Origin: Candidatus Levyibacteriota bacterium
GTDB lineage: Bacteria; Patescibacteriota; Microgenomatia; Levybacterales; UBA12049
Reading direction: 5' to 3'
Assembly (NCBI GenBank): GCA_016182185.1
Contig: JACOXU010000001.1
Location: forward strand, 15,700-79,699
DNA length: 64,000 bases
The first letter of the stretch is position 1, and every line of letters begins with the position of its first letter. The position numbers were made by a program, and so were the translations under genes. Below are positions 13,855 through 41,579 of the stretch, piece by piece. The notes beneath the pieces were generated by a model that saw only the letters and a list, made by a program, of their open reading frames with translations, was not told the origin of the DNA and ran no database searches.

Positions 13855-13864
13855 AATTTAAGTG

Positions 13865-13946
13865 TGCGGATGAGAGGACTCGGACCTCCAAGGGTTGCCC
13901 CACATGGCTCTAAACCATGCGCGTCTACCAATTCCGCCACATCCGC
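13865..13946 (-). tRNA. tRNA-Leu (anticodon TAG)
   Basis: Reverse complement GCGGATGTGGCGGAATTGGTAGACGCGCATGGTTTAGAGCCATG...; long variable arm; anticodon loop TTTAGAG. Confidence 0.85.
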
Positions 13947-13968
13947 AACCAACTGATTATAGCAAAAA

Positions 13969-14517
13969 TTAGATAGTGATTGGAAGGTTGTCCTTTAGAT
14001 TTGTCAACTTATATTTTTCGATAAGATTCATAAATCCGACTACTCTTGAAGCCCAAGTTGGAGACGCAGCATACATGCTACCAATTTCATAAACATTTTC
14101 TCCGCCCCACTTGTCTATATATCTTTCCCTAAGACTTCTTGAGATAGTTTCAATTGCCTCATTCCATGAGGAAAATCTGATGACATTATTTCCATAAATT
14201 CCCCATCCCCAGGCATTATATGAATTTGTGGGAATTTGATGACCGAATGTCGATTCTACTCCTGATATTGCGACCATAAGTCTGTAATCAAGATTGTATC
14301 GATCTGCGCTTTCTATAAAGTCCTCTGTAAACGGAGCAAGCGGTGAGTTATACTGTTTAAGAAATCTACGCAATATAGCAGCTCGATTATCATTTGATTT
14401 TGACGTATCTATTGCAAAAGCAGCGGAAGATGCAGAATGAATTTCGCGAGCTAACGCAGCTTTGGAAAATATGCTTAAAAATAAAAAAATAAAAACAGGA
14501 AATATAATCTTTTTCAT
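13969..14517 (-). CDS. secreted peptidoglycan hydrolase-like protein (lytic transglycosylase/glucosaminidase-like), paralog A
   Basis: N-terminal signal/TM segment; a VAISGVESTFG motif with an E-S catalytic-type pair; a conserved NAWGWGIYG block shared with paralog 14685-15260. Confidence 0.55.
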   Translation of the reverse strand: MKKIIFPVFIFLFLSIFSKAALAREIHSASSAAFAIDTSKSNDNRAAILRRFLKQYNSPLAPFTEDFIESADRYNLDYRLMVAISGVESTFGHQIPTNSYNAWGWGIYGNNVIRFSSWNEAIETISRSLRERYIDKWGGENVYEIGSMYAASPTWASRVVGFMNLIEKYKLTNLKDNLPITI

Positions 14518-14640
14518 AAGGTTTTAGCCCATAAACCAAGGGTTATTTAGCAGGTTTTTTGTAGGAATATCGCGTGATCAAAACCATTAAAAAATCCTAA
14601 CGTATGCATTTGGAAATGGCATACCTTAGGATCTGTCAGG

Positions 14641-14669
14641 AGTATATCATAGAACTATAGGTTTGTCAA
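14641..14669 (-). promoter_or_regulatory. sigma70-type promoter (TTGACA-17-TATACT) reading toward 13969-14517
   Basis: Minus strand: TTGACA (plus 14664-14669), a 17-nt spacer, then TATACT (plus 14641-14646). An 11-nt direct repeat AACTATAGGTT occurs at 14653-14663 and 14676-14686. Confidence 0.4.
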
Positions 14670-14684
14670 GTCTCAAACTATAGG

Positions 14685-15260
14685 TTATTCAAGGTGGTCC
14701 ATGAAGAGATTTACCGAATTTGCCCACGCTCCTGTGTTTGAGGGAGTGTATTTGGCCATAATTTCTTCAGGTGTATTTAATCCTTTACTTTTGTATTCGA
14801 TAAATAAAGTTTTTGCCACAGTGTCTATAGCCTCCTCGTAACTTGTGAATTTGGTCATTTTTTTACCATAAATTCCGAATCCCCAGCAGTTATATGAGCC
14901 TTTTGGAGCTTTTTTGCACAAATTTGATTCTTGCATGGCTATTGCAGGCAAAAGCCTGAAATCAAGTTCATATTTCTCAGAGACAGACACGAAATATTCA
15001 GCATAAGGTTCAAGGGAAGAATTATGACGGTTGAAAAATGTGCGTAGATTTTCAATTCTTTTATCAAGCGTTACTATTTCATCGTTTAAAGTGCTTTCCT
15101 GCGATGGTAGGGCCGCAAATGCGACAGGTTGGGAAATATTAGAGAAAGAATGACGGTTGACATCTGCTCCGTAAGCAAGATAAGAAAGGTAAACAAGGCT
15201 CAAGAGTAAAGTCAGAGGAGTAAGGAGGAGGAAGGTTAGCAACTTGACTATCTTTCCCAT
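14685..15260 (-). CDS. secreted peptidoglycan hydrolase-like protein, paralog B
   Basis: N-terminal TM/signal segment; AIAMQESNL (SLT-like QES motif); NCWGFGIYG block. Clearly paralogous to 13969-14517. Confidence 0.55.
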   Translation of the reverse strand: MGKIVKLLTFLLLTPLTLLLSLVYLSYLAYGADVNRHSFSNISQPVAFAALPSQESTLNDEIVTLDKRIENLRTFFNRHNSSLEPYAEYFVSVSEKYELDFRLLPAIAMQESNLCKKAPKGSYNCWGFGIYGKKMTKFTSYEEAIDTVAKTLFIEYKSKGLNTPEEIMAKYTPSNTGAWANSVNLFMDHLE

Positions 15261-15321
15261 GAATACTAATCATGGTTACATATTTGAGTAAAGATGTCAA
15301 GCTTTTAAGCCTGAAGTTTTG

Positions 15322-15393
15322 AGCGGGAGACGGGTATCGCACCCGCGACCTTCTCGTTGGCAACGAGACGTTCTACTGCTGAACTACTCCCGC
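15322..15393 (-). tRNA. tRNA-Gly (anticodon GCC), non-canonical D/T loops
   Basis: Reverse complement GCGGGAGTAGTTCAGCAGTAGAACGTCTCGTTGCCAACGAGAAGGTCGCGGGTGCGATACCCGTCTCCCGCT. The D-loop AGCAGTA has no GG. The T-loop TGCGATA reads UGC where TΨC is expected. Confidence 0.8.
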
Positions 15394-15410
15394 GCGTAAA
15401 TAATTTACTG

Positions 15411-15483
15411 TGCCGAGGGTCAGAGTCGAACTGACATAGCCTGTTCTTCAGACAGGTGCCGTGACCACCTTGGCTACCTCGGC
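15411..15483 (-). tRNA. tRNA-Phe (anticodon GAA)
   Basis: Reverse complement GCCGAGGTAGCCAAGGTGGTCACGGCACCTGTCTGAAGAACAGG...TTCGACT...CCTCGGCA. Confidence 0.9.
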
Positions 15484-15487
15484 TTTG

Positions 15488-15561
15488 TGGACTCCAGAGG
15501 GTTCGAACCTCTGACCTCCTCGGTGTAAACGAGGCGCTCTGACCAGCTGAGCTAGGAGTCC
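15488..15561 (-). tRNA. tRNA-Val (anticodon TAC)
   Basis: Reverse complement GGACTCCTAGCTCAGCTGGTCAGAGCGCCTCGTTTACACCGAGGAGGTCAGAGGTTCGAACCCTCTGGAGTCCA. Confidence 0.9.
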
Positions 15562-15600
15562 AAATAGCTTGCCCTGAGTGAGCAAAGCGAATCGAATGGG

Positions 15601-15687
15601 TGCCGAGGACAGGACTTGAACCTGCACGCCTTTTTTAAGGGCACAAGAACCTCAATCTTGCGTGTATACCAATTTCACCACCTCGGC
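15601..15687 (-). tRNA. tRNA-Leu (anticodon GAG)
   Basis: Reverse complement GCCGAGGTGGTGAAATTGGTATACACGCAAGATTGAGGTTCTTG plus a long variable arm, then GCAGGTTCAAGTCCTGTCCTCGGCA. Confidence 0.85.
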
Positions 15688-15724
15688 TTTTTGGATTATG
15701 ATTATATCAAAATCCTTAAGAATG

Positions 15725-15808
15725 TGCTCTGGGAGAGACTCGAACTCTCACGTTCTTGCGAACACTAGCTTCTGAAGCTAGCCTGTCTGCCAATTTCAGC
15801 ACCAGAGC
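15725..15808 (-). tRNA. tRNA-Leu (anticodon CAG)
   Basis: Reverse complement GCTCTGGTGCTGAAATTGGCAGACAGGCTAGCTTCAGAAGCTAG plus a long variable arm, then GAGAGTTCGAGTCTCTCCCAGAGCA. Confidence 0.85.
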
Positions 15809-21007: not shown

Positions 21008-21369
21008 TTTTTGTCTATAATGCAGATTCAGGGTTTTTTAATAGCATTAAAGATCTAATTCATAAATCTGTATCACCAAAAACATATGGATGTAATCTTT
21101 GCGGACTCACCTTTAGTGGGGCTTCAATGAAACAAGAATGGAGAGAATTCCTAGATAGTCTTCCGATAAGGGCTACGTTTTTGCATAAAGATGAATTTAC
21201 AAAGCAATACCCAAAATACGCGATGATAACTTATCCAGTTGTATTCAAAAAAGAGAACGGAATACTCAAAGGATTTATTTATACTGATGAGATAAATCAA
21301 CAAAAGACACTTGAAACGCTTCAAAAACTCGTACGAGACAAGATGCAAGCCCACGAGTCTAGGGCTTGA
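20998..21369 (+). CDS. hypothetical protein (123 aa)
   Basis: Contains a GCNLCGLT C-x2-C element; no recognised family. Confidence 0.4.
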   Translation: MELIFVYNADSGFFNSIKDLIHKSVSPKTYGCNLCGLTFSGASMKQEWREFLDSLPIRATFLHKDEFTKQYPKYAMITYPVVFKKENGILKGFIYTDEINQQKTLETLQKLVRDKMQAHESRA

Positions 21370-21892
21370 TAAAACTTTTTTCTCCAGCTCTTATTGCAGC
21401 AGGTAAGATGTTTTCTCCTGGAGTGATAGGACAATCCCATTGGTCATTATAAGAACTGTAGGGATTGTAGGCATAATTAAAATCAATTACTAATTTATCT
21501 CCTTTTTTAGGAATTTGTAACATCCGGCCATTTTTATAAGTTTCTTTACCGGTAGTTTGATCTCTAAACAGTAAGTAATACTGAAACTGTTCCCGCTCTG
21601 GATCTTCAAAAACTATAGCATCTACATTTTGGCCTTCAACATTAAACATAACTTTACCGGCTCTTAAATAGACTTGCTCATCTCCACCCGTAGTTTTAAT
21701 AACAACTTTTTTACCAACATCCGAAATATTCTTATCCAATTCCAGCTCAAAACTTAAACCTGGATTCGGCGGAAAATATTTTAATCCGGTAAAAGTTTCC
21801 TTCTGATCTTCAGTTAAAGGAGACTCAATATTTTCTCTCCAAGCTCTATCCTTCTGTTTTCTAAATTCTAATAGTTTTTCTTTACTGTACAT
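21359..21892 (-). CDS. DUF1684-like protein
   Basis: GLKYFPPNP...DFNYAYNPYS... pattern resembling DUF1684. It is the last gene of the co-directional redox block. Confidence 0.5.
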   Translation of the reverse strand: MYSKEKLLEFRKQKDRAWRENIESPLTEDQKETFTGLKYFPPNPGLSFELELDKNISDVGKKVVIKTTGGDEQVYLRAGKVMFNVEGQNVDAIVFEDPEREQFQYYLLFRDQTTGKETYKNGRMLQIPKKGDKLVIDFNYAYNPYSSYNDQWDCPITPGENILPAAIRAGEKSFIKP

Positions 21893-21895
21893 AAT

Positions 21896-24283
21896 CTATT
21901 TTTTACTCCTTACATTGTGTCCACCGAACTCATGACGTAAAGCCGAGACAACCTGACCGGTATATGAGGGTTTTCCTTGAGATTTTTTTCTAAACTCGAC
22001 TGCCCCCTCAATAATTTCTACTGGTACGTCCATTTCTCTTGCTGTTTCAACAGTCCATTTCCCTTCGCCGCTTTGAGATACTTTTCCAGAACAACATTCT
22101 TGGGTATTTAGATCATCGCCAAACTTGGCATACGCATCTTTAAGCCATCCGACAAGACGAGAAGTAATAACCGAACCGTGATTGTAAAGATCGGCAACGG
22201 AATACAAATCAAGTGAAAAAGGAGACTTTTTAAGAATCTCAAATCCTTCACCAATTGACTGCATCATACCGTACTCGATCCCGTTATGTACCATTTTTAC
22301 GAAATGTCCAGCGCTGGCATTGCCCATATAGCCGTATCCATCTTTAATCGATAAATCTCGGAATAAAGGCTCATGTCTTTCATAAAGTTCTTTTTTACCT
22401 CCAACCATAATACAAGCACCATTGAGCGCACCATCCGGACCACCTGAAACTCCAACGTCCAAGAAATTAATTCCACTTTTGTCTAGGTCTTTTGAGCGAC
22501 GGATAGAGTCTTTATAAGGTGAATTACCACCGTCTATAATAGTGTCTCCTTTTTCAAGAAGAGGTACAAGCTCGTTTAAAACTTCGTCAACTGCCTGGTA
22601 AGATGCCATTAGCCAAATTGTGCGGGGGTTTTTAAGTTTTTCAACCAGTTCTTCCAGAGAATGGGTGCCAAGAATCCCTTCAGACTCATAAACCTTGGTT
22701 ACCTCGTAAGTCCTGTTATAACCGTACACCTTCCATCCTTTTGAAACTAATTGTTTCGCCAGATTTGCCCCCATTTTCCCAAGACCTATAATCCCTATTT
22801 CGTTTATTTTTACCTTTCCTTTTTTGATCATATTTCCCCTCGCGCTTTTATCTAATTCAGGGGCTGGAGTTGTGTCCGGTTTGTATTTCAAAAGCGGAGC
22901 AAGATTTTCCTTCCATGCCTCAATGACAGGGTCTGCAAATTTCCACTGAGCTTCAACTTCATTTTGAGAAATAAAAAGCGATTGATCAGCATGTATAGCG
23001 TGATAAAGAACCTTTGCGTATTCTTCAACATATTGTACTTTGGTTTGCTTTTTGTATAAAAAGAATGAAAAAGTTCTTTCCTCAAGCACTCGTTCAAACC
23101 CCGGTTTTTTAGTCCAGAAATGAATTACTATTTCATCCCTTGGTTCAAGGCGAAAAACTATACGATTTGGTGTATGCTTGCGGATTTCACACAAGTGGCA
23201 CACTTTTGGATGTTTTAATGTTAAGACAATTTCTTTTCGCACCTCTCCCATACGCTTACCTGCTGAAAGTGTTATCGATACACCTTTCCATTTTGGATGA
23301 AGAAGTTCAGTTTTAAGCGCAAAATATGTTTCCGTATTGGAGTTAGGTGTAACGTCTTGAATCTCTTTGTAGCCTTTATATTGCGCTCGGAATGTGTTCT
23401 TTGTTAAAATTTCCCTTCTCCACGGCAAAAGAGCCTCAAGGATTTTTGCTCTGGTTTTTCTGATGCCTGTTTCTTCTTCGTTTGATGGATATTCCATAGT
23501 GAGCGCAGCAAGCATTGAGAGAAGATGATTTTGTCCCACATCCCGCAAAGCTCCAACCTGATCATAAAAGCTTCCTCTATCTTCAACGCCTATTTTTTCA
23601 TGAAGCTGCAGATCAATGCTGTCGATGGTTGAATTATCCCAAATGTTCTCAAAGAGATTATTGGAAAATCGAAAATTTTCTATTCCCTGAACTATTTCTT
23701 TAAAAAGGTAGTGATCAATGCGGTAAATTTGCTCTTCCTTAAAATATGAAGAGAGAAGTGTCTGAAGCTTTCTTGCCGTTGCAAGATTGGTACCAAACGG
23801 TTTTTCAATAAGAATTCTGCTCCAGCCGAGTTTTCCTCCACAAGGGATGTTTAATTTCACTGCTGCAAGGTTTTTGAAAATCAAATCATAATTTATTGGC
23901 GGAACTGCCAGATAAAAAAGCTTATTAGCACAAATTCCCCATAAATTTTCTGTTTCGCTAATTTTGTTGACTAGAGCCTGATATGCTTTTTCATCTTCAA
24001 AAGTGCCATTCTGATAAGAAAAGGTCACAAAAAATTTCGAGAATTTCTCGCTTGTTACGTTTTCCCCGCTGCGTTTTTTAACCGAATCGAAAACATAGTC
24101 TTTAAATTCTTGAGCAGAAAAATCTCTTCTTGAAAAGCCTATAACGGAAATGTTATCGGGCAAAAGGTTCTGCTCGAAGAGGTGCCAGAGAGAAGGAATA
24201 ATTTTTTTTGCCGCCAGGTCTCCCGTTACGCCAAATATTACAAGAATTGTCGGTATTTCTTTTGATATTTCCTTTGATTCCAT
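21896..24283 (-). CDS. fused glucose-6-phosphate 1-dehydrogenase / 6-phosphogluconate dehydrogenase (decarboxylating)
   Basis: N-terminal half: G6PD motifs GVTGDLAAKKIIPSL (dinucleotide-binding) and RIDHYLFKE (G6PD signature RIDHYLGKE). C-terminal ~300 aa: 6PGDH motifs IGIIGLGKMGANLA, GGNSPYKDSIRR, GVSGGPDGALNG, GHFVKMVHNGIEYG, GEGKWT. Single uninterrupted ORF of 808 aa; the start is probably the Met at MESKEIS. Confidence 0.85.
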   Translation of the reverse strand: MESKEISKEIPTILVIFGVTGDLAAKKIIPSLWHLFEQNLLPDNISVIGFSRRDFSAQEFKDYVFDSVKKRSGENVTSEKFSKFFVTFSYQNGTFEDEKAYQALVNKISETENLWGICANKLFYLAVPPINYDLIFKNLAAVKLNIPCGGKLGWSRILIEKPFGTNLATARKLQTLLSSYFKEEQIYRIDHYLFKEIVQGIENFRFSNNLFENIWDNSTIDSIDLQLHEKIGVEDRGSFYDQVGALRDVGQNHLLSMLAALTMEYPSNEEETGIRKTRAKILEALLPWRREILTKNTFRAQYKGYKEIQDVTPNSNTETYFALKTELLHPKWKGVSITLSAGKRMGEVRKEIVLTLKHPKVCHLCEIRKHTPNRIVFRLEPRDEIVIHFWTKKPGFERVLEERTFSFFLYKKQTKVQYVEEYAKVLYHAIHADQSLFISQNEVEAQWKFADPVIEAWKENLAPLLKYKPDTTPAPELDKSARGNMIKKGKVKINEIGIIGLGKMGANLAKQLVSKGWKVYGYNRTYEVTKVYESEGILGTHSLEELVEKLKNPRTIWLMASYQAVDEVLNELVPLLEKGDTIIDGGNSPYKDSIRRSKDLDKSGINFLDVGVSGGPDGALNGACIMVGGKKELYERHEPLFRDLSIKDGYGYMGNASAGHFVKMVHNGIEYGMMQSIGEGFEILKKSPFSLDLYSVADLYNHGSVITSRLVGWLKDAYAKFGDDLNTQECCSGKVSQSGEGKWTVETAREMDVPVEIIEGAVEFRKKSQGKPSYTGQVVSALRHEFGGHNVRSKK

Positions 24284-24288
24284 AATTA

Positions 24289-25638
24289 TTATTCGATTGC
24301 AAAAAATGCCCTTTGTAACCATTCTGGTAAAGCTGGGTGAATATAAACAGAATTTGTAATTGCTTTTACAGTTCCATTTGCCTTCATGGCAACAATTACT
24401 TCATGAATTAGGGTAGATGCTTCATGACCTACGATATGAGCTCCAAGAATTTTTTCTCCATTCTTATCAGTTAGAACTTTTGCGAGTCCATTTTCTTGTA
24501 ATGCTCCACCCATACCGGTATCTTTGAGCTCTGCTCTCCCTACTTTATAAGCTGTACCTTCTTTTTTAAGCTCTTGCTCTGTTTTACCAACTCCACCAAC
24601 CTGAGGAGATGAAAAAACCGCATGACCTATTGCAAAGGGATTAAATGGTACTTTTTTATCAGTAAAAGCGTTTCTAATTGAAAATCCAACTTGGTCATTG
24701 GCGGTATGTCGAAACGGCAAGATACCAAGTATATCCCCAAACGCCCAGATACCATCAACATTTGTCTCAAGGTACTCATTAACCTTAATATACCCATTGT
24801 CATTCACCTCAACTCCTGTTGTCTTAACATCTAAGATGTCGGTATTGGGAACTCTGCCAGTAACAACCAGCAATTGATCACTCTCAAGTTTTCTTTCACT
24901 GTCTTTTAAGGTAATAATGAAATTGCCGTTTTGGTAGGAAACCGACTCTGCCTGTGTATTAAAGAGAATTTCATATTTTTTAGAAAACTTCTTGGTGAAC
25001 CATTGGGCTATTTCTTCATCTTCATCACTCAACATGAGATTTCCCCTGACCAAAATTGTAATTTTAGTTCCTAAAGCTCCATAAAAATGTGCAAGCTCTG
25101 CTGCTATATAACCGCCGCCTATAATTATTAAATGTTTTGGTTGTTTCTCAAGCCTTAATGCTTTTGTACTATCTAGAAATGGTGTATTTTTCAAACCCGG
25201 AATTGGGGGTATGGAAGGCCTGGTGCCTCCGACAATAAATACTTTATCAGCCTCAATCTGACCATCTCCTACCTGCATTTGTTTTGGACCAATAAACTTA
25301 CCGCGCATTTTATAGAGGATAGGGTTTCCGTTTTCTCTGACAGACTTTTCAATACCGGCCGAATCAGTATCTACCACCTCAGAGACTCGTTTTACGATCG
25401 ATGCAAAATCTATGCTTTCTATCTTGCTTTTAATCCCAAATTTTCCGCTATTTTTAATAGCTTCAGCAACATCCGATGAGTGGATCAACATCTTTGAGGG
25501 TATGCAACCTCGATTTAGACACGTTCCACCCAGCGGGCCTTCTTCGACTATTGCAACAGACATTTCTTTTTCTGCAGCAAATGATGCTACTTCGAGTCCG
25601 GCTCCTGATCCCACAACTAAAACATCAAACTTTTTCAT
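24289..25638 (-). CDS. class I flavoprotein pyridine nucleotide-disulfide oxidoreductase (glutathione reductase / Lpd-like)
   Basis: FAD-binding GSGAGL; redox-active GGTCLNRGCIPSK; a second Rossmann GGGYIAAEL with a VRG element; a C-terminal dimerisation domain with HPALPE. Confidence 0.85.
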   Translation of the reverse strand: MKKFDVLVVGSGAGLEVASFAAEKEMSVAIVEEGPLGGTCLNRGCIPSKMLIHSSDVAEAIKNSGKFGIKSKIESIDFASIVKRVSEVVDTDSAGIEKSVRENGNPILYKMRGKFIGPKQMQVGDGQIEADKVFIVGGTRPSIPPIPGLKNTPFLDSTKALRLEKQPKHLIIIGGGYIAAELAHFYGALGTKITILVRGNLMLSDEDEEIAQWFTKKFSKKYEILFNTQAESVSYQNGNFIITLKDSERKLESDQLLVVTGRVPNTDILDVKTTGVEVNDNGYIKVNEYLETNVDGIWAFGDILGILPFRHTANDQVGFSIRNAFTDKKVPFNPFAIGHAVFSSPQVGGVGKTEQELKKEGTAYKVGRAELKDTGMGGALQENGLAKVLTDKNGEKILGAHIVGHEASTLIHEVIVAMKANGTVKAITNSVYIHPALPEWLQRAFFAIE

Positions 25639-25675: not shown

Positions 25676-25876
25676 TTAACTGCTCGTACTGTGTTGTTGT
25701 CCATGTGTTGCTAAATCTTGTGGAGATTTTGCTTTCATGCCGCATTTAGAGCATATTATCGAATGTTCTTCTTGCTCATCTTTATTACTGTGCATTTGTT
25801 TTGCGTGGGAATCCATTTCATCTTGAGAATCAAACTGACCTCCGCACATAGGACATTTTAATTTATTGCTATCCAT
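25676..25876 (-). CDS. small protein with two C2H2-type zinc-finger-like motifs (66 aa)
   Basis: CPMCGGQFDSQDEMDSHAKQMH and CSKCGMKAKSPQDLATHGQQH both fit C-x2-C-x12-H-x3/4-H. A strong GGAGGTGA RBS lies 8 nt upstream. Confidence 0.6.
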   Translation of the reverse strand: MDSNKLKCPMCGGQFDSQDEMDSHAKQMHSNKDEQEEHSIICSKCGMKAKSPQDLATHGQQHSTSS

Positions 25877-25917
25877 TTTACTTCACCTCCTTTTATGTTC
25901 GTAAATTGTTAGAATGC

Positions 25918-26166
25918 TTATAAACCTAGCACTTTATCTAAAGCTTCTTTATTAAATCCTAAAATCGCAACTTCCTTTCCATCGTCTTTTACAATATGTG
26001 TGCAGGGTACTCCCATAGATTTGCAAATATGCATTGCCTCTGCTGCCTTATCTGGATTATAGTCAAGAACTATATCCTCAAAAGAAATATTCTTCTCTTT
26101 TAAGTAGCTCTTCAGCATATGACAATAGGGACAAGCTGTTGTCGAGTAAACTTTTATTTTAGCCAT
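25918..26166 (-). CDS. glutaredoxin (CPYC active site)
   Basis: KVYSTTACPYCHMLKSYL is a classic Grx CPYC motif and fold; about 82 aa starting from the MAKIKVY ATG. The ORF-track start at 26175 is a GTG. Confidence 0.8.
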   Translation of the reverse strand: MAKIKVYSTTACPYCHMLKSYLKEKNISFEDIVLDYNPDKAAEAMHICKSMGVPCTHIVKDDGKEVAILGFNKEALDKVLGL

Positions 26167-26461
26167 TTCTATCACCTGCCTTCATTTTATCCTTATGCAT
26201 TATTATTAGATTTTTGTTTGCGTCAAGCGCCTTTTTCAGCTCTTCATTTGAAGGCTCAACAAGAACCTCGCCATTAGGAAACAAAATAGTCGGAATCGAC
26301 TGCATTCCGCGATTTATCTCTTCAACTTCTGCTGCTGCACTTGGATCTTTATCTATATTTATGTATTCGTACATAACACCTCTTTGGTCAAGAAAGAATC
26401 TAGATCTATGGCAATCGGCGCACCAGTCAGCTCCATAAAATTTTATATGCTTCGAACTCAT
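26159..26461 (-). CDS. glutaredoxin-like / thioredoxin-fold protein (CADC active site)
   Basis: IKFYGADWCADCHRSRFFL is a Cx2C motif in the thioredoxin-fold position, with a later ...SIPTILFPNG cis-Pro-type region. Confidence 0.7.
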   Translation of the reverse strand: MSSKHIKFYGADWCADCHRSRFFLDQRGVMYEYINIDKDPSAAAEVEEINRGMQSIPTILFPNGEVLVEPSNEELKKALDANKNLIIMHKDKMKAGDRNG

Positions 26462-26493: not shown

Positions 26494-26646
26494 TTAATTG
26501 TGATTGTGATCTTGTTCACGGTTTTCATTTTTTTCTTTTTTATGACTTGGGTCAGTACAGTTTTTATCTGTACATTTCTCAATCACACCGATCGCCTTTC
26601 CCATTCTGCACATCGTACAATTATCGTGTTTTCCATGTCCCATCAT
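26494..26646 (-). CDS. unannotated 50-aa Cys/His-rich small protein
   Basis: Not in the ORF track because it is under 60 aa. A GGAGGTG RBS 7 nt upstream, then ATG ATG; translation MMGHGKHDNCTMCRMGKAIGVIEKCTDKNCTDPSHKKEKNENREQDHNHN (4 Cys, 5 His). It fills the gap between the CADC-Grx gene and the 117-aa membrane protein gene on the same strand. Confidence 0.45.
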   Translation of the reverse strand: MMGHGKHDNCTMCRMGKAIGVIEKCTDKNCTDPSHKKEKNENREQDHNHN

Positions 26647-29463: not shown

Positions 29464-29925
29464 TTAGTTTATTTGTGCAACTAAAGTATCAAAATCTCCG
29501 CCAATCCATCGTTTTATTTCGTTTCCCTGACTGTCAAGATAAACCATTGTATGCTGTTGTGCTATACCATACTTTTTCTTATTGAAGCTGTCGTGGTCGT
29601 AGTCAATCTTAAGTACTGTTAGGTTTTCGGGAAGCGATGCGCTTTTCTCTCTTAATTCTTTGTCTAAAGCAGAACATGTATTACACCATGCAGTTGCTGC
29701 AAAAAACAATACGGTATTTCCGTTTCCATATGCTTGCGTTAAGGTTCCTTCGGAATAATCAAAATAATGTGGGGAAATGGGTTGAAAATCAGCAAGTACT
29801 CTTTGCTGTGGGACTGTTTTATTTACAAAAAAATTATTAAAAAGAACTCCCGCAAAAATTACCCCCAGTACTATTATGGCAGTTGTAATTCCATTTAATT
29901 TCGTATTTTTTATTTTTAAAGTCAT
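29464..29925 (-). CDS. membrane-anchored thioredoxin-like protein (TlpA/ResA-like), WCNTC
   Basis: N-terminal TM anchor; Trx fold with active site WCNTC. Confidence 0.8.
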   Translation of the reverse strand: MTLKIKNTKLNGITTAIIVLGVIFAGVLFNNFFVNKTVPQQRVLADFQPISPHYFDYSEGTLTQAYGNGNTVLFFAATAWCNTCSALDKELREKSASLPENLTVLKIDYDHDSFNKKKYGIAQQHTMVYLDSQGNEIKRWIGGDFDTLVAQIN

Positions 29926-30365
29926 ATTAGTTGTTGTTTTATTGTTTCAATGCCGCCACCTATCCAATTATGTACTTCGTTCCCTTCGCTATCGACTTGT
30001 ACAAGTGTATGCTGTTGAACAATATTATATTTTTGTTTTAGCTCTTTTTCGGTATCGTAGTTTACCTGTAAAATAGTCACATCGTCAGGCAATTCACCAC
30101 TTCTTTCTTTAAGTTCCTCATCAAGGACTTTGCATGTTGGACACCATGAAGCCCAAAAATAGAGAACGGGGCGACCATTTGTCTTTCCAGCGGCAAGGTT
30201 CTCTTCTGAGTATTTAAGATAATGTGGGGCGATTTCTCCAGAATTGTCTTGAGTAGCTGTTATACTTCTTGTAGTATCTTTGGTCTTAGATTGCGTAAGA
30301 AAAACACCTCCTAAAATCACAATAAGAAGTATTATCACAATAGCAATTATTTTCCCGATCTTCAT
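29922..30365 (-). CDS. membrane-anchored thioredoxin-like protein (TlpA/ResA-like), WCPTC
   Basis: N-terminal TM anchor; active site WCPTC. Paralog of 29464-29925. Confidence 0.8.
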   Translation of the reverse strand: MKIGKIIAIVIILLIVILGGVFLTQSKTKDTTRSITATQDNSGEIAPHYLKYSEENLAAGKTNGRPVLYFWASWCPTCKVLDEELKERSGELPDDVTILQVNYDTEKELKQKYNIVQQHTLVQVDSEGNEVHNWIGGGIETIKQQLI

Positions 30366-30445
30366 ACTTTAAGCATACAGTAAACACTCTTCGGTATACC
30401 ACTCATAAAATTCTCAAAATTCTAGAATACTTCTGAAAGGGTTTG

Positions 30446-30847
30446 TTAATTAAGATTCGTAAGCAATGCTTCTACCCCTTTACCTCCGCTATTCCATCTC
30501 GTAATTTCCTTTCCCTGACTATCAACTTGAATAAATGTATCCTGCATGGTGATAGCATACTTTTTCTTCATGGCAGAATCATTATCATAGTCGACTTTAA
30601 GAATAGTTACATCTCCCGGAACTTCATCAAAATTTGCCTTAAAATTCCTGTCTGCTGCCTGACATGAAGGACACCAGGCAAGCGCCGCAAAGAAAAGAAC
30701 AGCACAACCATTGTTTGCCGTTGCTTTGGAAAGAGAATTTGATGAATAGTCAACATAGCGAGTTGCTATCGCAGAATCATTGGAGCCCATTGCAGAATCG
30801 TCTTCCATCATTTCCCCAGCTTCCATAAATGATCCGTCAGTCCACAT
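30446..30847 (-). CDS. thioredoxin-like protein (TlpA-like paralog), WCPSC, no N-terminal anchor
   Basis: Trx domain homologous to the two upstream paralogs (…VLFFAALAWCPSC…) but with an acidic 25-aa N-terminus instead of a TM helix. There is no in-frame upstream start before a stop at 30908. Confidence 0.6.
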   Translation of the reverse strand: MWTDGSFMEAGEMMEDDSAMGSNDSAIATRYVDYSSNSLSKATANNGCAVLFFAALAWCPSCQAADRNFKANFDEVPGDVTILKVDYDNDSAMKKKYAITMQDTFIQVDSQGKEITRWNSGGKGVEALLTNLN

Positions 30848-31394: not shown

Positions 31395-32057
31395 TTAAGA
31401 GGACAGTTGCTCTAGGTGTGAGGAATTAAACTGGAGCATTTTTTTTGAACGCTTAATATGCCCCTTTTTCTCTAGTTGGTTAATAAGGGTTGTTACAGTT
31501 TGTCGTGAGATGCCAAGCATCTGGGCAAGTTCTTCATGTGTAAATTTATCTGATATCTCCATATAATCTTCAGATTTTGGCTTACCTAGGCTCAAAAGTA
31601 ACTTAACTAATCTTTGAAATGCATTATCGGCGGCCACTGAGGACATTCGCTTCTCAACTGAAAGAAGTCTATTAAAAAGCTGCTTCATTAATTTTTCAGA
31701 TAGGTCCGGATACTGAGAGATTAGTGTAAAAAAATTGTTTTTTTCAAGAGAGCACACATATGAATCAACCGTTGCCTCCACAAATATCTCAGATGAACCC
31801 TCAGAGCCTAAATCTCCAAATAAACTTCCCGGACGCAGCCTTTCTATTATCGTCTTTTTACCTGATGGGGTGAGCTGAAACAATTCCACTTGGCCAGTTT
31901 TTACAAGAAATACTTTATCTCTGTCTCCAGGTTCAAAAATTACCTCTCTTTTACTATATTCCTTCATAGCAAACAGAGACTCTATTTTATGAAGTTTATC
32001 TTTCGCTAAGTCTTTAAACAAATCGAGCTGTTGAATGTACCAAAGCTTCTTGTTCAT
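31395..32057 (-). CDS. Crp/Fnr-family transcriptional regulator
   Basis: N-terminal cNMP-binding-like beta-roll; C-terminal HTH (HEELAQMLGISRQTVTTLINQLEKKGHI). Confidence 0.85.
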   Translation of the reverse strand: MNKKLWYIQQLDLFKDLAKDKLHKIESLFAMKEYSKREVIFEPGDRDKVFLVKTGQVELFQLTPSGKKTIIERLRPGSLFGDLGSEGSSEIFVEATVDSYVCSLEKNNFFTLISQYPDLSEKLMKQLFNRLLSVEKRMSSVAADNAFQRLVKLLLSLGKPKSEDYMEISDKFTHEELAQMLGISRQTVTTLINQLEKKGHIKRSKKMLQFNSSHLEQLSS

Positions 32058-37692: not shown

Positions 37693-39066
37693 TCAGACAC
37701 AGCAACTTAATTTAGAAATGTCCTTAGTAAAGGACAAGGCGGCAATTTTAATAGCCTCCGAAAGCGTCGGGAACATAGGTAAGGAATTTACCACGTCATC
37801 AATGGTATTTTTATTTTTAACTAACGACATCGCTTGAGCAATTAAATCACCTGCATTAGGAGCTAAAATATGCACCCCAAGAATTACTTTTGTCTCAGGG
37901 TGGATAACCATTTTTATTAAACCTTCCGTTCTGCCAATAATAAGAGCCTTTGGAACGTCTGCAAAAGAAACAGTCCGGCAAAGACACCTTCCTAACTGTT
38001 TCATTTCTTGTTCTTCAGTAAGTCCTACACCTGCGAGCTGTGGGTCAGTAAAGATAGTCCAAGGGACAGTATTGTAATCAATACTATTTTGAGTACCTTT
38101 AAGTGCATTTTCAGCAGCAAGCGTTCCCTCTCTGCCTGCTGTTGGTTCTTCTCTAATGGGTAGATTTGTCACATCGCCCACCGAAAAAATGTGTGGTTGA
38201 GATGATTGAAATTGAGGACTTACTTTTATCGCCTGTTTATCATCAATTTCTATATTAGCTTTATCAAGACCTAAGCCTTGTGTCTCATCGGCTGATACTT
38301 GTTCTTCTTTATTAGCGGTTATATAAGTCAGGACTTTCTTACCTCCTTCTTTACGTGCAGATTTAACTTGTACATTTGTTTTAATAGTTATGCCCTCTTT
38401 GGTAAGTATTTCGGCCAAACGATCAGTAAGTTCTCTTTCTGCCGGAGGGAAAATAGAGACATTCTTTTGTAAAACAGTTATTTTTGTTCCAAAACGAGAA
38501 TACATTTGTGCAAACTCCAATCCCAAAGGCCCCGCACCAACTACAATAAGTTCTTTGGGAAGATTTTTAATCTGTAAAGCCTCAATATGAGTCAAGTATC
38601 CAACTTCTTGTATATTCTCAATCGGTGGTACAGTTGCGGTCGATCCGGCTGCAATAATAAATTTCTTTGCTTGATATTTTTGTCCATTAACTTCAATCTC
38701 GTTAGGGGAAACAAAACTAGCTTTACCTTCTATGTGGGTAACATTTTCTAAACCATTTAAGACTTTCTCATACTTTTCAGCTCTAAGCTTTGCTACTAAA
38801 TCGAGTTCATGCTGAACAACTTGACTAAAATTAAAGTTTTTAACTTCTATATCAATCCCTGGAATATTGTGACTTTTAGCAAGATGCATTACTTCTCCTG
38901 CCCAAAGAAGCGTTTTAGAAGGAACACAACCAACGTTTACACAGGTTCCGCCTAGAGGAAGTCCCTGATTAACCATCAAAGTTTTTGCTCCAAGCTCATT
39001 GGCTTTAATAGCGGAAGCAAAAGCCCCTGCGCCTCCTCCGATAATGATTAAATCGTACTCATTCAT
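37693..39066 (-). CDS. mercuric reductase-like flavoprotein (MerA core without the N-terminal HMA domain)
   Basis: FAD motif IIGGGAGA; redox-active LGGTCVNVGCVPSK, identical to the MerA active-site signature; the C-terminus ends in ...KLSCCV, a Cys pair as in MerA ...QLSCCAG. Confidence 0.75.
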   Translation of the reverse strand: MNEYDLIIIGGGAGAFASAIKANELGAKTLMVNQGLPLGGTCVNVGCVPSKTLLWAGEVMHLAKSHNIPGIDIEVKNFNFSQVVQHELDLVAKLRAEKYEKVLNGLENVTHIEGKASFVSPNEIEVNGQKYQAKKFIIAAGSTATVPPIENIQEVGYLTHIEALQIKNLPKELIVVGAGPLGLEFAQMYSRFGTKITVLQKNVSIFPPAERELTDRLAEILTKEGITIKTNVQVKSARKEGGKKVLTYITANKEEQVSADETQGLGLDKANIEIDDKQAIKVSPQFQSSQPHIFSVGDVTNLPIREEPTAGREGTLAAENALKGTQNSIDYNTVPWTIFTDPQLAGVGLTEEQEMKQLGRCLCRTVSFADVPKALIIGRTEGLIKMVIHPETKVILGVHILAPNAGDLIAQAMSLVKNKNTIDDVVNSLPMFPTLSEAIKIAALSFTKDISKLSCCV

Positions 39067-39129
39067 ATTGTCTTAATTTATGCTCGACAAGGACAACATG
39101 GCCCCATAATTTCTCACCCCCTTTAGCAT

Positions 39130-40602
39130 TTATACCCCACATCCTGCTCCACCTTTTGTTTGGGGGATAAGATTTGGTATCTTGGCAATTTCTGTCTGTA
39201 CATTCTTGCCCCAGCCGCTACCTGTTGAGTAATCAGTACCCAACGCCACTTTTGGATCAACTTTGTCCCACTCTATGTTTTTAACAACCTTAAAATACAG
39301 GGCTGTTTGAATATAATTTTGTGGGAACCAAGAGGAATTGAAGGCGAGAGCCTCTTTGTAAAGTTCATCCTCGGAGAGTCCCTGTGATGCGCCAAGTTGC
39401 AGAAGTCCTAATAACGCTGATCCATGATTGCAGTCCTGAAAGAAAGTAGAGTTATTGCAACAGGGACGATAGGTGTTTTTGGCAATTTGAGTGACTAAAG
39501 CTTCTTGCTCTGGTGTCAATTCAACTATTCTGAATTTATTGAAATACGCTCCGCCATTTTCTTCCTTTCCTATATTCCAACCCCCAGTTGAAGCAAAGTT
39601 AAAAAGAGATTTTCCATTAACAGGACTATCTTTATTTGTTGACATATAGTTTGATAGTCCTAATGCCCAAAGAAGGTTAACGTAAGTGTTAGCGTTTTCT
39701 CTGGTGAGAAGAATAGGCCTATATGAAGATTGACTTAATATATCTTTCAGCTCGGGAGGCAATCCTCCGCGTTCTTTATAAATTTCTTCAAATTTACCCT
39801 GGTCAATAACGCCATTTTGTACCAATTCTACGACGCTATCCCCTAAGAAAATTTTGCTTTGAAAACCTTGTGCTGGCAAAACTTTAGCTACAACCTCGTC
39901 ATAAACTTTGTTTCCTGTTGAAGAAATGTTAGAGGTATTTAGTTTATTGTCGTTTGAGTTAAGAAGTGCTGTCTTATTAAAGAAGCTGAAAATTATTGGA
40001 TCAGTCTTAAGCATATTCCAGCCAATAAGTATCAAAACAGCAACCAATGCTAAAGAGGCTATAAGATAAGGTTTATCTTTTGCTCGATATGAAGTAGGGC
40101 GGGGAATCGGGCAAGTTTCATCGCCGCAACTTAAAGATTTTAACTCTCTTGTTGTTAACCAGACAGGAAGCGCCATTAAGGCAAAAGAAAGTGATTTTAG
40201 TTCTAAACCTTGCAGGGGGAAAGCTGCCAGCCCTCCGGCAATGCCAATAGCGGATAAAAGAACAGAACCGCAGACTGGACAAGCAGAGGCCGCCACCCCT
40301 ACTAATGCTCCTAAACTGCTTCCGCCTTGAACTTTGAGTCTGGGCGGTCCAAATTTCCTCCAGCGATAAACAAATAATGAGGCGTTAACGCCAAAAAGGA
40401 CAATAGTACCAAAAGTAAGAAGGATATATGACCATAAGTACACAGGCTGACTTTTGGTGTTGTTGATAAGATTATAAATACTTGAATTAAGGCTTAAGCT
40501 CCAATAGAAGATAAGCAGTAGAAGTAGAGAAGCCACCAGCCCGATTGAACCGTAAAATAAAAAGGTCAATAATTTTTTCTTAAATCTGTTAATTCTTCTC
40601 AT
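39130..40602 (-). CDS. Cys-containing polytopic membrane protein with a large extracytoplasmic C-terminal domain (candidate metal-ion transporter)
   Basis: About 5 TM helices in the first 190 aa. One carries ACPVCG; a loop carries SCGDETCP. The ~300-aa hydrophilic C-terminal domain has a PCCNNSTFFQDCNHG motif and ends GGAGCGV. It lies in an operon with the ArsR and MerA-like genes. Confidence 0.55.
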   Translation of the reverse strand: MRRINRFKKKLLTFLFYGSIGLVASLLLLLIFYWSLSLNSSIYNLINNTKSQPVYLWSYILLTFGTIVLFGVNASLFVYRWRKFGPPRLKVQGGSSLGALVGVAASACPVCGSVLLSAIGIAGGLAAFPLQGLELKSLSFALMALPVWLTTRELKSLSCGDETCPIPRPTSYRAKDKPYLIASLALVAVLILIGWNMLKTDPIIFSFFNKTALLNSNDNKLNTSNISSTGNKVYDEVVAKVLPAQGFQSKIFLGDSVVELVQNGVIDQGKFEEIYKERGGLPPELKDILSQSSYRPILLTRENANTYVNLLWALGLSNYMSTNKDSPVNGKSLFNFASTGGWNIGKEENGGAYFNKFRIVELTPEQEALVTQIAKNTYRPCCNNSTFFQDCNHGSALLGLLQLGASQGLSEDELYKEALAFNSSWFPQNYIQTALYFKVVKNIEWDKVDPKVALGTDYSTGSGWGKNVQTEIAKIPNLIPQTKGGAGCGV

Positions 40603-40604
40603 AT

Positions 40605-41216
40605 TTATCTAGCGTGATGATGTTCGCTATCTCCGCCGCATCCATCAGATAAATTCCACACTTGGGTAACCTGTTGTCCAGTAAATTGGTAATTTTTAAT
40701 TAAGATTTTACCCAACCCTCCATAAACATTCCATCTCCAGCATTTACAGCAACAAGGACCTTTTTCATCAGAATTTTGCATGGCATAATCATAAGCTTCC
40801 TGTTCTTCTGTGGACAACTGAATACTGTCATAATCTGCCATTAACTTTTTGGCCAGCTTTGCCTCAATGTCATAAGGATCAGGCGGAATTTCAGCGATAT
40901 TTTGATATTTCTTCAATCCTTCAACCTGCTCGCTGTAGCGGTGCATACTCATGGGGCTACAACAAGAACCTTGCAAACGAGAATTATCTGGCATTGAAGT
41001 GATAGAATCACGAAATGCTCCCGAGCAGGAGGAATTACCATGTTTTGAGAGGTAATCAAATTTTGCAGCCAACGCATCGTTAACCAATCCCTTTGTTTCC
41101 TGTTGAGATGACTGCTTAAGAGAAAAATTAAATAGCGGCTTAGATGAGAAAAAATAAAAATAACCTGCAATAAAGGCTGAAATAATTAGTGCTAATACAA
41201 GTATCTTTTTATTCAT
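40605..41216 (-). CDS. secreted Cys/His-rich protein (203 aa)
   Basis: Signal/TM helix; Cys clusters NSSCSGAF, QGSCCSPMSMHRY, GPCCCKCWRW; C-terminus DGCGGDSEHHHAR. Confidence 0.5.
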   Translation of the reverse strand: MNKKILVLALIISAFIAGYFYFFSSKPLFNFSLKQSSQQETKGLVNDALAAKFDYLSKHGNSSCSGAFRDSITSMPDNSRLQGSCCSPMSMHRYSEQVEGLKKYQNIAEIPPDPYDIEAKLAKKLMADYDSIQLSTEEQEAYDYAMQNSDEKGPCCCKCWRWNVYGGLGKILIKNYQFTGQQVTQVWNLSDGCGGDSEHHHAR

Positions 41217-41532
41217 TGTTTTCTAATAATTGACTTTTAATGATCGAAGCAAATTTATTTTTACCTAAAGAATATAAAACTTGCTTTGCTTGCCTTCTAT
41301 TCTCAACCACTTGTATTTCTTTCAACTTCTTTAGGCTGTGGGATACTGTAGAAATTGGTAATCCAATAATTTCCGCCATCTCAGAAACTGTTAGTTCTGG
41401 ATGATGACAAAGAAGGTAGCAAATCCTCATTCTGGTGAGATCACCTGTTGTCCCAAACCTTTCAGCACATGCCTCAATTTTCTTGTTGTCTTGAAGTTCA
41501 TCCCGAAGCACTTTTTTCTTCCTCATTTGCAT
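41209..41532 (-). CDS. ArsR/SmtB-family metalloregulator
   Basis: Winged HTH ...LTRMRICYLLCHHPELTVSEMAEIIGLPISTVSHSLKKLKEI...; CxxC-type (CYLLC) metal site in the alpha3 region. The start is probably the ATG (MQMRKKK); the ORF-track extension to 41577 uses TTG and would overlap the operator. Confidence 0.75.
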   Translation of the reverse strand: MQMRKKKVLRDELQDNKKIEACAERFGTTGDLTRMRICYLLCHHPELTVSEMAEIIGLPISTVSHSLKKLKEIQVVENRRQAKQVLYSLGKNKFASIIKSQLLENNE

Positions 41533-41542
41533 ATCTATACAA

Positions 41543-41579
41543 ATGATAGGAATTTGTTTTACTTTTGTCAATGACAAAA
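41543..41579 (-). promoter_or_regulatory. promoter with perfect 8-1-8 palindromic operator (TTTTGTCA-A-TGACAAAA) overlapping -35 TTGACA; -10 TATCAT
   Basis: Minus strand: TTGACA (plus 41566-41571), a 17-nt spacer, then TATCAT (plus 41543-41548), about 10 nt before the ArsR ATG. The palindrome spans 41563-41579. Confidence 0.5.

Follow-up and report, generated by a model that had tools for sequence, protein, structure and literature searches.

Results

The zinc-finger gene at the locus

In a 64,000-nucleotide stretch of the genome of Candidatus Levyibacteriota (hereafter the window, to which positions refer unless a locus is named), a gene for a small protein with two zinc-finger motifs, which we call ZF, lies, where the initial annotation had placed it, between two genes of the glutaredoxin family and a gene for a flavoprotein disulfide reductase (FDR). 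All of these genes are on the reverse strand, and gaps of 41 nt on the glutaredoxin side and 37 nt on the reductase side flank the ZF gene (Table 1). The gene encodes a protein of 66 amino acids (aa) and 7.3 kDa, MDSNKLKCPMCGGQFDSQDEMDSHAKQMHSNKDEQEEHSIICSKCGMKAKSPQDLATHGQQHSTSS, which is best explained as a genuine, cytoplasmic protein with two classical Cys2-His2 (C2H2) fingers and an acidic linker between them. The main new result of this work is that the ZF gene and the FDR gene form a near-obligate, closely spaced pair.

Both of the motif strings first recognised in the open reading frame (ORF) are present there, as C8-x2-C11-x12-H24-x4-H29 and C42-x2-C45-x12-H58-x3-H62. The strict pattern C-x2-C-x12-H-x3-5-H has two matches in a six-frame scan of the 64-kb window, both within the ZF ORF; over 200 shuffles the average was 0.06 matches, and no shuffle had more than 1. 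An AT-rich genome with many short ORFs invites the suspicion of a spurious ORF with a chance motif, or else of eukaryotic contamination, but this explanation has a negligible probability and is already refuted by the strong ribosome-binding site before the gene, the 41 unique homologues under purifying selection, the conserved synteny, a motif count well above that of the shuffles and the native composition of a gene that sits on a 617-kb Levybacteria contig. Across 13 orthologues the rate of non-synonymous differences falls below that of synonymous differences (pN < pS) in 78 of 78 pairs, and the median dN/dS is 0.14 for the pairs with an estimable dS, synonymous sites being mostly saturated. 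The GC content of the gene (37.3%) and that of its third codon positions (GC3, 28%) are in the same range as in the neighbouring genes; recent transfer or contamination as the origin of ZF is ruled out by this composition and by the operon context. An identical protein, encoded on a contig of 617 kb in a Candidatus Levybacteria metagenome-assembled genome (MAG), is on deposit under the label 'hypothetical protein'. A scan for promoters and terminators gave counts no higher than the shuffle expectation, with no terminator-like site on either side of the ZF gene, and co-transcription of the gene with its neighbours is plausible.

Domain family and predicted fold

By sequence and predicted fold, ZF belongs to the classical C2H2 domain family, and we hold with high confidence that it is a tandem C2H2 protein. 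The search with profile hidden Markov models that had been proposed as a check places it above the curated cut-offs of two Pfam families, zf-C2H2_4 (32.8 bits against a gathering cut-off of 27) and zf-C2H2 (28.8 bits against 25.2, over two matched stretches). The AlphaFold2 model, for which a 13-sequence alignment was the input, has a mean predicted local distance difference test (pLDDT) score of 77 and consists of two beta-beta-alpha units, the first with strands at residues 6-7 and 14-15 and a helix at 18-32, the second with strands at 40-41 and 48-49 and a helix at 52-65. Block pLDDT values are 82-89 and 83 over the fingers and 56 over residues 31-40. The fold whose absence had been named in advance as a reason to abandon the assignment is thus predicted for both halves of the protein.

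Comparison of the model with the PDB by Foldseek gave tandem C2H2 arrays (ZBTB7A, Zif268, CTCF, Aart) for all of the best 50 matches listed, with probabilities of 0.89-0.99 and with E-values of only ~1e-2, which is usual for a protein of this small size; a search of a viral structure library returned mostly generic C2H2-type proteins. When the family profile was compared with the sequences of the PDB, classical fingers alone (CTCF, Zif268, Aart) were found among the best 60 matches, and the alignments to CTCF and Aart span both fingers. Against 1.84 billion representative proteins the same profile matched 4983 at E < 1e-3, mostly long proteins with many matched stretches. The hydrophobic core of finger 1 is preserved (F15 invariant, M or L at position 21), as is L or M at position 55 of finger 2, where Ala or Lys stands at the position at which an aromatic residue is expected. 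The protein is expected to bind Zn.

Conservation of the ligands and natural variants

In an alignment of 21 two-finger homologues the residues C8, C11, F15, H24, H29, C42, C45 and H58 are invariant, so that seven of the eight predicted ligands are without variation and the exception is the last His of finger 2. Loss of His conservation among homologues had been proposed as a ground for rejecting the fingers; three of the four residues (H24, H29 and H58) are conserved and that part of the assignment stands, while H62 is not. A wider set of 41 unique family sequences, drawn from genome and metagenome loci, keeps finger 1 as C-x2-C-x12-H-x4-H in 34 cases and finger 2 as C-x2-C-x12-H in 38. The fourth ligand of finger 2 is supplied in this set by a His at x3 (n = 14), by a His at x9 (n = 10) or by a C-terminal x-C-x2-C (n = 9), and is absent from three sequences. 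H38 was considered as an alternative ligand and rejected because, although invariant in close homologues, it is variable in the wider set. At one locus (L009, 111-293) the reading frame of ZF is interrupted by a stop codon at a position that codes for Gln or His in its relatives (…LKEHE*HHSINS); the last His ligand follows shortly after this stop, which could be a nonsense mutation or a site of read-through.

Departures from the two-finger plan are of several kinds. In L021, L025, L026, L052 and L053 the place of finger 1 is taken by MNDQNNCMACSCPCEMHKEHNHP, a Cys/His-rich N-terminus of the type CxxCxCxC-H-x2-H-x-H; in L022 to L024 the hairpin of finger 1 is deleted and the C-terminus reads HSCATC; and in L104 a His-rich tail, HKHEKEHNHG, stands in place of finger 2. 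Single-finger members of 37 aa (L047) and 54 aa occur, and both fingers are fully canonical in L042 and L044, where a Pro-rich linker joins them. Common to these variants are at least one beta-beta-alpha finger, extra soft-metal ligands and a position before FDR, and no segment is universal.

The family is acidic, with a negative net charge in 39 of 42 members and a median of -3.3. Helix positions +2 and +3 are mostly Glu or Asp (at +3, Glu in 31 of 35 copies of finger 1 and Glu or Asp in 29 of 39 copies of finger 2), and position -1, as read from the alignment, is mostly Ser. The 12 residues that separate the last His of finger 1 from the next Cys are acidic, vary in length and do not resemble TGEKP.

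Linkage to the disulfide reductase

The initial annotation had seen in the surrounding genes a redox operon, and comparison of loci shows this setting to be real and stronger than could have been known from the one sequence. When ZF is the anchor, the next gene downstream is an FDR orthologue (~75-87% identity) in about 15 of 18 distinct loci. When FDR is the anchor, in metagenome contigs and counting loci with an FDR of at least 63% identity and with upstream DNA, a ZF member is found just upstream in 28 of 29 orthologue loci, with gaps that mostly run from -4 (an overlap) to ~140 nt. FDRs of 61-68% identity can be paired as well (L105 and L109, and L104 in divergent orientation), and the pairing is lost in L106, which has an FDR of 63% identity; beside distant FDR homologues (~30% identity) a ZF gene is found in none of ~33 independent loci.

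A single gene is inserted between ZF and FDR in two lineages. The insert is an NAD(P)H-dependent FMN reductase in L001 (5329-5736) and L018 (6222-6800), and a DedA/TVP38-like membrane protein in L028 (1370-2029), L045 and L049. In L003 to L006 and in L019, ZF (8001-8168 in L003) is truncated at residue 55 where the synteny with FDR breaks, and no remnant of the last helix was found in any frame in the L003 lineage. The 55-aa protein of this lineage ends after KSQQA, and a convergent mechanosensitive-channel gene replaces the FDR synteny; the truncated form was seen on 14 contigs, all of them from a single groundwater site, and seems to be what is left of a gene in decay.

Taxonomic range

A word-index search recovered ZF homologues at 62-74% identity, an exhaustive profile search of 1.84 billion proteins gave ~14 further short representatives, and 16 ZF loci came from a scan in which each GTDB species was represented by one genome. 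All named ZF loci belong to Levy-, Davies- or Roizmanbacteria or to a 'Patescibacteria group', and the named FDR orthologues to Levy- or Daviesbacteria or to Microgenomates. As far as found here, the family is restricted to Microgenomates (Levy-, Davies- and Roizmanbacteria). Five loci (L016, L020, L022, L023 and L026) come from binchicken MAGs titled 'uncultured Gammaproteobacteria' that carry the same Microgenomates-type cluster, and the title looks like a placeholder or a mislabel. Distant two-finger mini-proteins of 59-66 aa were also met, beside a Peptidase_S49/NfeD gene in L107 and L108 (P0159) and after a 1299-aa MerR-collagen-Peptidase_S74 protein in L110 (P0149); these contexts are unrelated to the one described here, and tandem C2H2 mini-proteins are therefore not confined to the pairing with FDR.

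The reductase and the surrounding thiol-redox cluster

The active site of FDR, GGTCLNRGCIPSK, is of the CxxxxC type and holds the two active-site cysteines, the only ones of the enzyme, which has a C-terminal His-Glu dyad (HPALPE) and lacks the C-terminal Cys pair of the MerA type. The best model scores are those of dihydrolipoyl dehydrogenase and mycothione reductase, both below the cut-off, and the nearest solved structures are mycothione reductases. We read FDR as a disulfide reductase because of the two-Cys active site, the dyad, the missing MerA-type pair and these scores, its chemistry being taken as disulfide reduction since both the CxxxxC motif and the dyad are kept. The enzyme would use NADPH, to judge from its dinucleotide-binding motif and from the adjacent gene for a G6PD-6PGDH fusion. 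This 808-aa protein, with a short 6-phosphogluconate-dehydrogenase-like domain, is encoded directly downstream of FDR, and a role in the supply of NADPH is consistent with the cofactor proposed for FDR. In L011 the region that matches the fusion is split into two ORFs.

Upstream of ZF and of the two glutaredoxin-like genes lies the gene for a 50-aa mini-protein rich in Cys, His and Met, which we call CH50. It has no match to a Pfam or NCBIfam family, and its homologues, of 42-55 aa, occur in most ZF-FDR loci; the residues H4, G5, H7, C10, C13, M15, G20, K24 and C30 are invariant in 11 sequences. Like ZF, CH50 is probably a mini-protein that binds metal, the second in the cluster. Further upstream are a fusion of CcdA (DsbD_TM) with DUF3179 and, preceding it, three paralogous genes for membrane-anchored thioredoxin-like proteins; the fusion is 70-85% identical across Microgenomates loci and forms, with these genes, the extracytoplasmic reducing arm of the cluster. 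The set of genes that recurs from locus to locus comprises the Crp/Fnr regulator, two to three membrane-anchored thioredoxin-like proteins, CcdA(DsbD_TM)-DUF3179, a LUD-domain protein, a small membrane protein, CH50, one to two glutaredoxin-like proteins, ZF, FDR, and DUF1684 and/or the G6PD-6PGDH fusion.

Table 1. Coordinates of the ZF gene, its parts and the neighbouring features in the window
Feature	Position	Strand	Basis or remarks
ZF gene, 66-aa two-finger protein	25676..25876	-	ORF, Pfam, selection, AlphaFold2 model
Shine-Dalgarno sequence GGAGGTG	25884..25890	-	7 nt upstream of the ZF ATG, read from the sequence
Finger 1, LKCPMCGGQFDSQDEMDSHAKQMH, C-x2-C-x3-F-x5-M-x2-H-x4-H, residues 6-29	25790..25861	-	model, invariant residues
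Acidic linker, SNKDEQEEHS, residues 30-39	25760..25789	-	low model confidence; length and sequence vary
Finger 2, IICSKCGMKAKSPQDLATHGQQH, C-x2-C-x12-H-x3-H, residues 40-62	25691..25759	-	model, invariant C42, C45 and H58
FDR, 449-aa class-I flavoprotein disulfide reductase	24289..25638	-	Pfam Pyr_redox_2, Pyr_redox_dim
G6PD-6PGDH fusion and DUF1684, downstream of FDR	21359..24322	-	
G6PD-6PGDH fusion alone, 808 aa	21896-24322	-	
Glutaredoxin-like protein, 85 aa, YruB-like	25918..26175	-	CPYC motif
Glutaredoxin-like protein, 100 aa, mycoredoxin-like	26159..26461	-	CADC motif
CH50, 50-aa Cys/His/Met-rich mini-protein, MMGHGKHDNCTMCRMGK...	26494..26646	-	co-occurs with ZF-FDR
CcdA/DsbD_TM-DUF3179 fusion, 553 aa	27801-29462	-	Pfam, synteny
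Three paralogous membrane-anchored thioredoxin-like genes	29464-30847	-	precede the CcdA-DUF3179 fusion
Crp/Fnr-family regulator, head of the cluster	31395..32057	-	conserved beside the cluster
mer-like operon	37693-41577	-	
Core MerA, 457 aa, GGTCVNVGCVPSK	37693-39066	-	C-terminal SCCV, no NmerA domain
ArsR-type regulator of the mer-like operon	41209-41577	-	

A mer-like operon lies on the same strand, with its MerA ~12 kb from the ZF gene. Apart from the members listed in Table 1 it encodes a 203-aa Cys-rich protein (CCSP, PCCCKCW and a C-terminal HHH) and a 490-aa membrane protein with an ACPVCG motif. An orthologous MerA gene borders directly on the cluster's Crp gene in L017, L023 and L026, stands immediately before ZF-FDR in L109 and lies downstream of the ZF gene in L009; the ZF family more generally recurs beside ArsR-type regulators, MerT/MerC-like proteins and core MerA without an NmerA domain.

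Six tRNA genes (Leu, Gly, Phe, Val, Leu, Leu) are clustered at 13864-15808 on the reverse strand. The whole window holds 14-15 tRNA genes, and an Rfam search of it for riboswitches and structured RNAs returned tRNAs only, with no further Rfam family.

Discussion

Comparison with known zinc-binding proteins

With the fingers of the Kruppel/TFIIIA type, of which Zif268 and CTCF are examples (PF00096, PF13894), ZF shares the C-x2-C-x12-H-x3-5-H pattern, the core of finger 1, the predicted beta-beta-alpha fold and the tandem arrangement. It differs from them in being a stand-alone, acidic bacterial protein of 66 aa, encoded by an operon gene with a Shine-Dalgarno sequence and paired with a reductase. 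In place of the seven-residue TGEKP linker it has an acidic linker of 12 residues, its base-contact positions hold Glu or Asp, finger 2 is without an aromatic core and the fourth ligand of that finger is variable. The DNA-binding features of the Zif268/Kruppel type, namely the TGEKP linker and basic or polar residues at -1, 2, 3 and 6, are not those found in ZF.

The Ros/MucR proteins have one zinc site, with a shorter Cys-to-His spacing, in a larger globular domain, together with an oligomerisation domain, whereas ZF has two independent classical fingers of 23-24 residues with x12 spacing. Their similarity to ZF lies in a bacterial host and in Cys2His2-type zinc coordination; they are DNA-binding regulators of alpha-proteobacteria and are ~140 aa long (in part from PMC9779718). 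No Ros/MucR family is found among the best 25 Pfam matches of ZF and no Ros/MucR structure among its best 60 PDB profile matches. Membership of ZF in this group is ruled out by its size, the number and spacing of its fingers and the profile matches.

Outside the eukaryotes, the closest earlier example of a classical finger comes from an archaeal virus, whose protein AFV1p06 has, like ZF, a beta-beta-alpha finger; its fourth His is missing and substituted, as in several variants of finger 2 (PMC3541406). AFV1p06 differs from ZF in having a single finger with extensions, in binding GC-rich DNA and in its viral and archaeal setting. The same study found no bacterial homologues of AFV1p06 and reported C2H2 motifs in ~0.003% of bacterial proteins (PMC3541406), and the rarity of classical C2H2 fingers in bacteria that had been asserted for this gene is thereby supported by the literature. 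Our own literature searches found no paper that joins C2H2, zinc finger and Patescibacteria, and nothing relevant on a glutaredoxin with a disulfide reductase in bacteria of the Candidate Phyla Radiation (CPR).

The haloarchaeal C(P)XCG mini-proteins such as HVO_2753 are, like ZF with its predicted sites, stand-alone metal-binding proteins of one or two domains and at most 70 aa, with two C(P)XCG motifs, which in ZF read CPMCG and CSKCG (PMC11241148, PMC6562870). Their sites are of the Cys4, zinc-ribbon-like kind, however, whereas each beta-beta-alpha unit of ZF combines CxxCG with two His. One shared Cys4 site that needs no His is not what is seen in ZF, where the Cys pairs lie in separate units of the model.

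Finally, the zinc-thiolate redox switches RsrA, Hsp33 and the N-terminal finger of Trx2, and NmerA, the metallochaperone of MerA, are small Cys-containing modules for zinc or other metals whose genes accompany, or are fused to, those of thiol-redox enzymes or flavoprotein disulfide reductases, in a setting of thiol or metal stress. Their relation to ZF is one of functional analogy only, with no relationship of sequence or fold. For NmerA in particular, which has the HMA fold and a GMxCxxC motif, the Pfam scan of ZF gave no HMA match and the predicted fold is different.

Proposed function

The pairing with FDR leads us to propose, tentatively and as the best of the explanations considered, though one that is possible rather than probable, that ZF serves the FDR-glutaredoxin system as an accessory or sensor module of the zinc-thiolate type. 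The metal occupancy or thiol state of ZF would report or buffer thiol-oxidising and thiophilic-metal stress, and the protein would act through contacts with the reductase system, as a sensor, an accessory subunit or a protein substrate, and not by reading DNA sequence; the FDR/glutaredoxin arm would keep ZF reduced and reset its state. The redox-sensitive Zn switch suggested in the initial annotation is plausible on these grounds, and both a partnership with FDR and a responsiveness to redox or metal conditions may be expected of ZF. A dedicated partnership with an FDR specific to Microgenomates, in which oxidants or Hg(II) would strip the zinc from ZF and NADPH, FDR and glutaredoxin would restore it, with ZF as sensor or substrate, we consider improbable.

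Several observations weigh against the proposal. FDR looks like an ordinary small-molecule disulfide reductase, and such enzymes normally need no protein partner; no ZF-FDR fusion is found among the best 120 FDR homologues, all of ~390-470 aa and without a zinc-finger Pfam domain. L051 has FDR without an upstream ZF gene, and L026 and L009 have the ZF gene without FDR. A small autoregulator would be encoded just as close to FDR. Because His-rich tails have no redox activity, the variants indicate metal binding in general more than a thiol switch in particular. Mini-proteins predicted to be zinc fingers may, moreover, be metal-free or bind other metals (PMC11241148).

A somewhat unlikely alternative is that ZF is a chaperone or buffer of soft metals, similar to NmerA or to a metallothionein, whose Cys/His sites carry Zn, Cd, Hg or Cu as cargo. 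It would protect the dithiol of FDR or pass metal to the mer system, and redox switching would not be essential to it. The plasticity of the ligands, the number of which stays high when a finger is exchanged for the CxxCxCxC-H-x2-H-x-H N-terminus, the HKHEKEHNHG tail or a C-terminal CxxC, speaks for this explanation, as do the presence of CH50 in the same cluster and the recurrence of the family beside mer-type genes, including a MerA that lacks NmerA. Its difficulties are that the tightest linkage of ZF is to a disulfide reductase with a His-Glu dyad and not to MerA, that neither an HMA domain nor a GMxCxxC motif is present in ZF, and that classical C2H2 sites hold Zn tightly as a structural ion and not as exchangeable cargo.

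It is unlikely that the fingers bind the DNA or RNA of the operon and autoregulate the FDR gene, with the loss of Zn on oxidation as a possible signal. The closest matches of ZF in structure and sequence are admittedly DNA-binding C2H2 arrays, small regulators are often encoded beside their targets, the hairpin of finger 2 has a conserved basic patch (K44, K48 and K50), and AFV1p06, with its single finger, binds DNA (PMC3541406). These points have to be set against the net negative charge of 39 of the 42 members, the Glu and Asp residues at the +2 and +3 base-contact positions, a linker of 12 residues that is acidic, variable and not TGEKP-like, and variants with one finger or a Cys/His-rich swap, which are incompatible with a conserved recognition code; the cluster also contains a Crp/Fnr regulator already, and the ZF gene lies in the middle of the operon and not at its head. 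The other role put forward at the outset, that of a nucleic-acid-binding regulator, is accordingly disfavoured. We argue against a conserved DNA-recognition code, because the protein is acidic, its contact positions hold Glu or Asp, its linker is noncanonical and its fingers are replaceable, and from the composition of the family the reading of DNA by ZF appears unlikely. Acidity, linker and finger replacement make it more likely that selection acts on metal binding or on contacts with proteins.

Very improbable is a single rubredoxin-like or zinc-ribbon-like Cys4 centre formed by CPMCG and CSKCG, which are 30 residues apart, possibly with Fe and serving as an electron carrier for FDR. The spacing of the Cys pairs resembles that of rubredoxins, and the gene adjoins that of a Pyr_redox_2 flavoprotein, as may be compared with rubredoxin and rubredoxin reductase. 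Both pairs also fit the C(P)XCG knuckle of rubredoxins and of the haloarchaeal mini-proteins (PMC11241148). However, H24, H29 and H58 are invariant and the core of finger 1 (F15, M or L21) is conserved, AlphaFold2 gives two separate beta-beta-alpha units, single-finger members have two Cys only, the best 25 Pfam matches include no rubredoxin family, and FDR, which has a dimerisation domain, belongs to the class-I disulfide reductases and not to the rubredoxin reductases. We rejected a single Cys4 site because of the His invariance, the model and the single-finger variants.

Significance

The classical C2H2 finger is the commonest DNA-binding domain of animals and has been described as practically absent from bacteria (PMC3541406). 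What is new here is a coherent bacterial family of tandem classical fingers that is native to its hosts, is under purifying selection and occurs in CPR bacteria with minimal genomes; the novelty is that of a known domain in an unusual host and architecture, with a new and tightly conserved enzymatic partner gene. At 7 kDa, ZF is in addition a tractable model for the redox chemistry of zinc fingers. Should ZF be merely a small regulator, the result would still provide a useful annotation for ~100 or more 'hypothetical' genes. If the partnership with FDR is true, it would represent a role of bacterial classical fingers that is independent of DNA, and a new component of the defence against thiol and metal stress in Patescibacteria, the redox biology of which is largely unknown. 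And if ZF does act as a relay between oxidants or metals and the FDR-glutaredoxin system, these would be the first bacterial classical beta-beta-alpha fingers to serve as a thiol-redox or metal-stress relay, and would represent a deep-branching bacterial lineage of classical fingers with a bearing on the origin of the eukaryotic domain.

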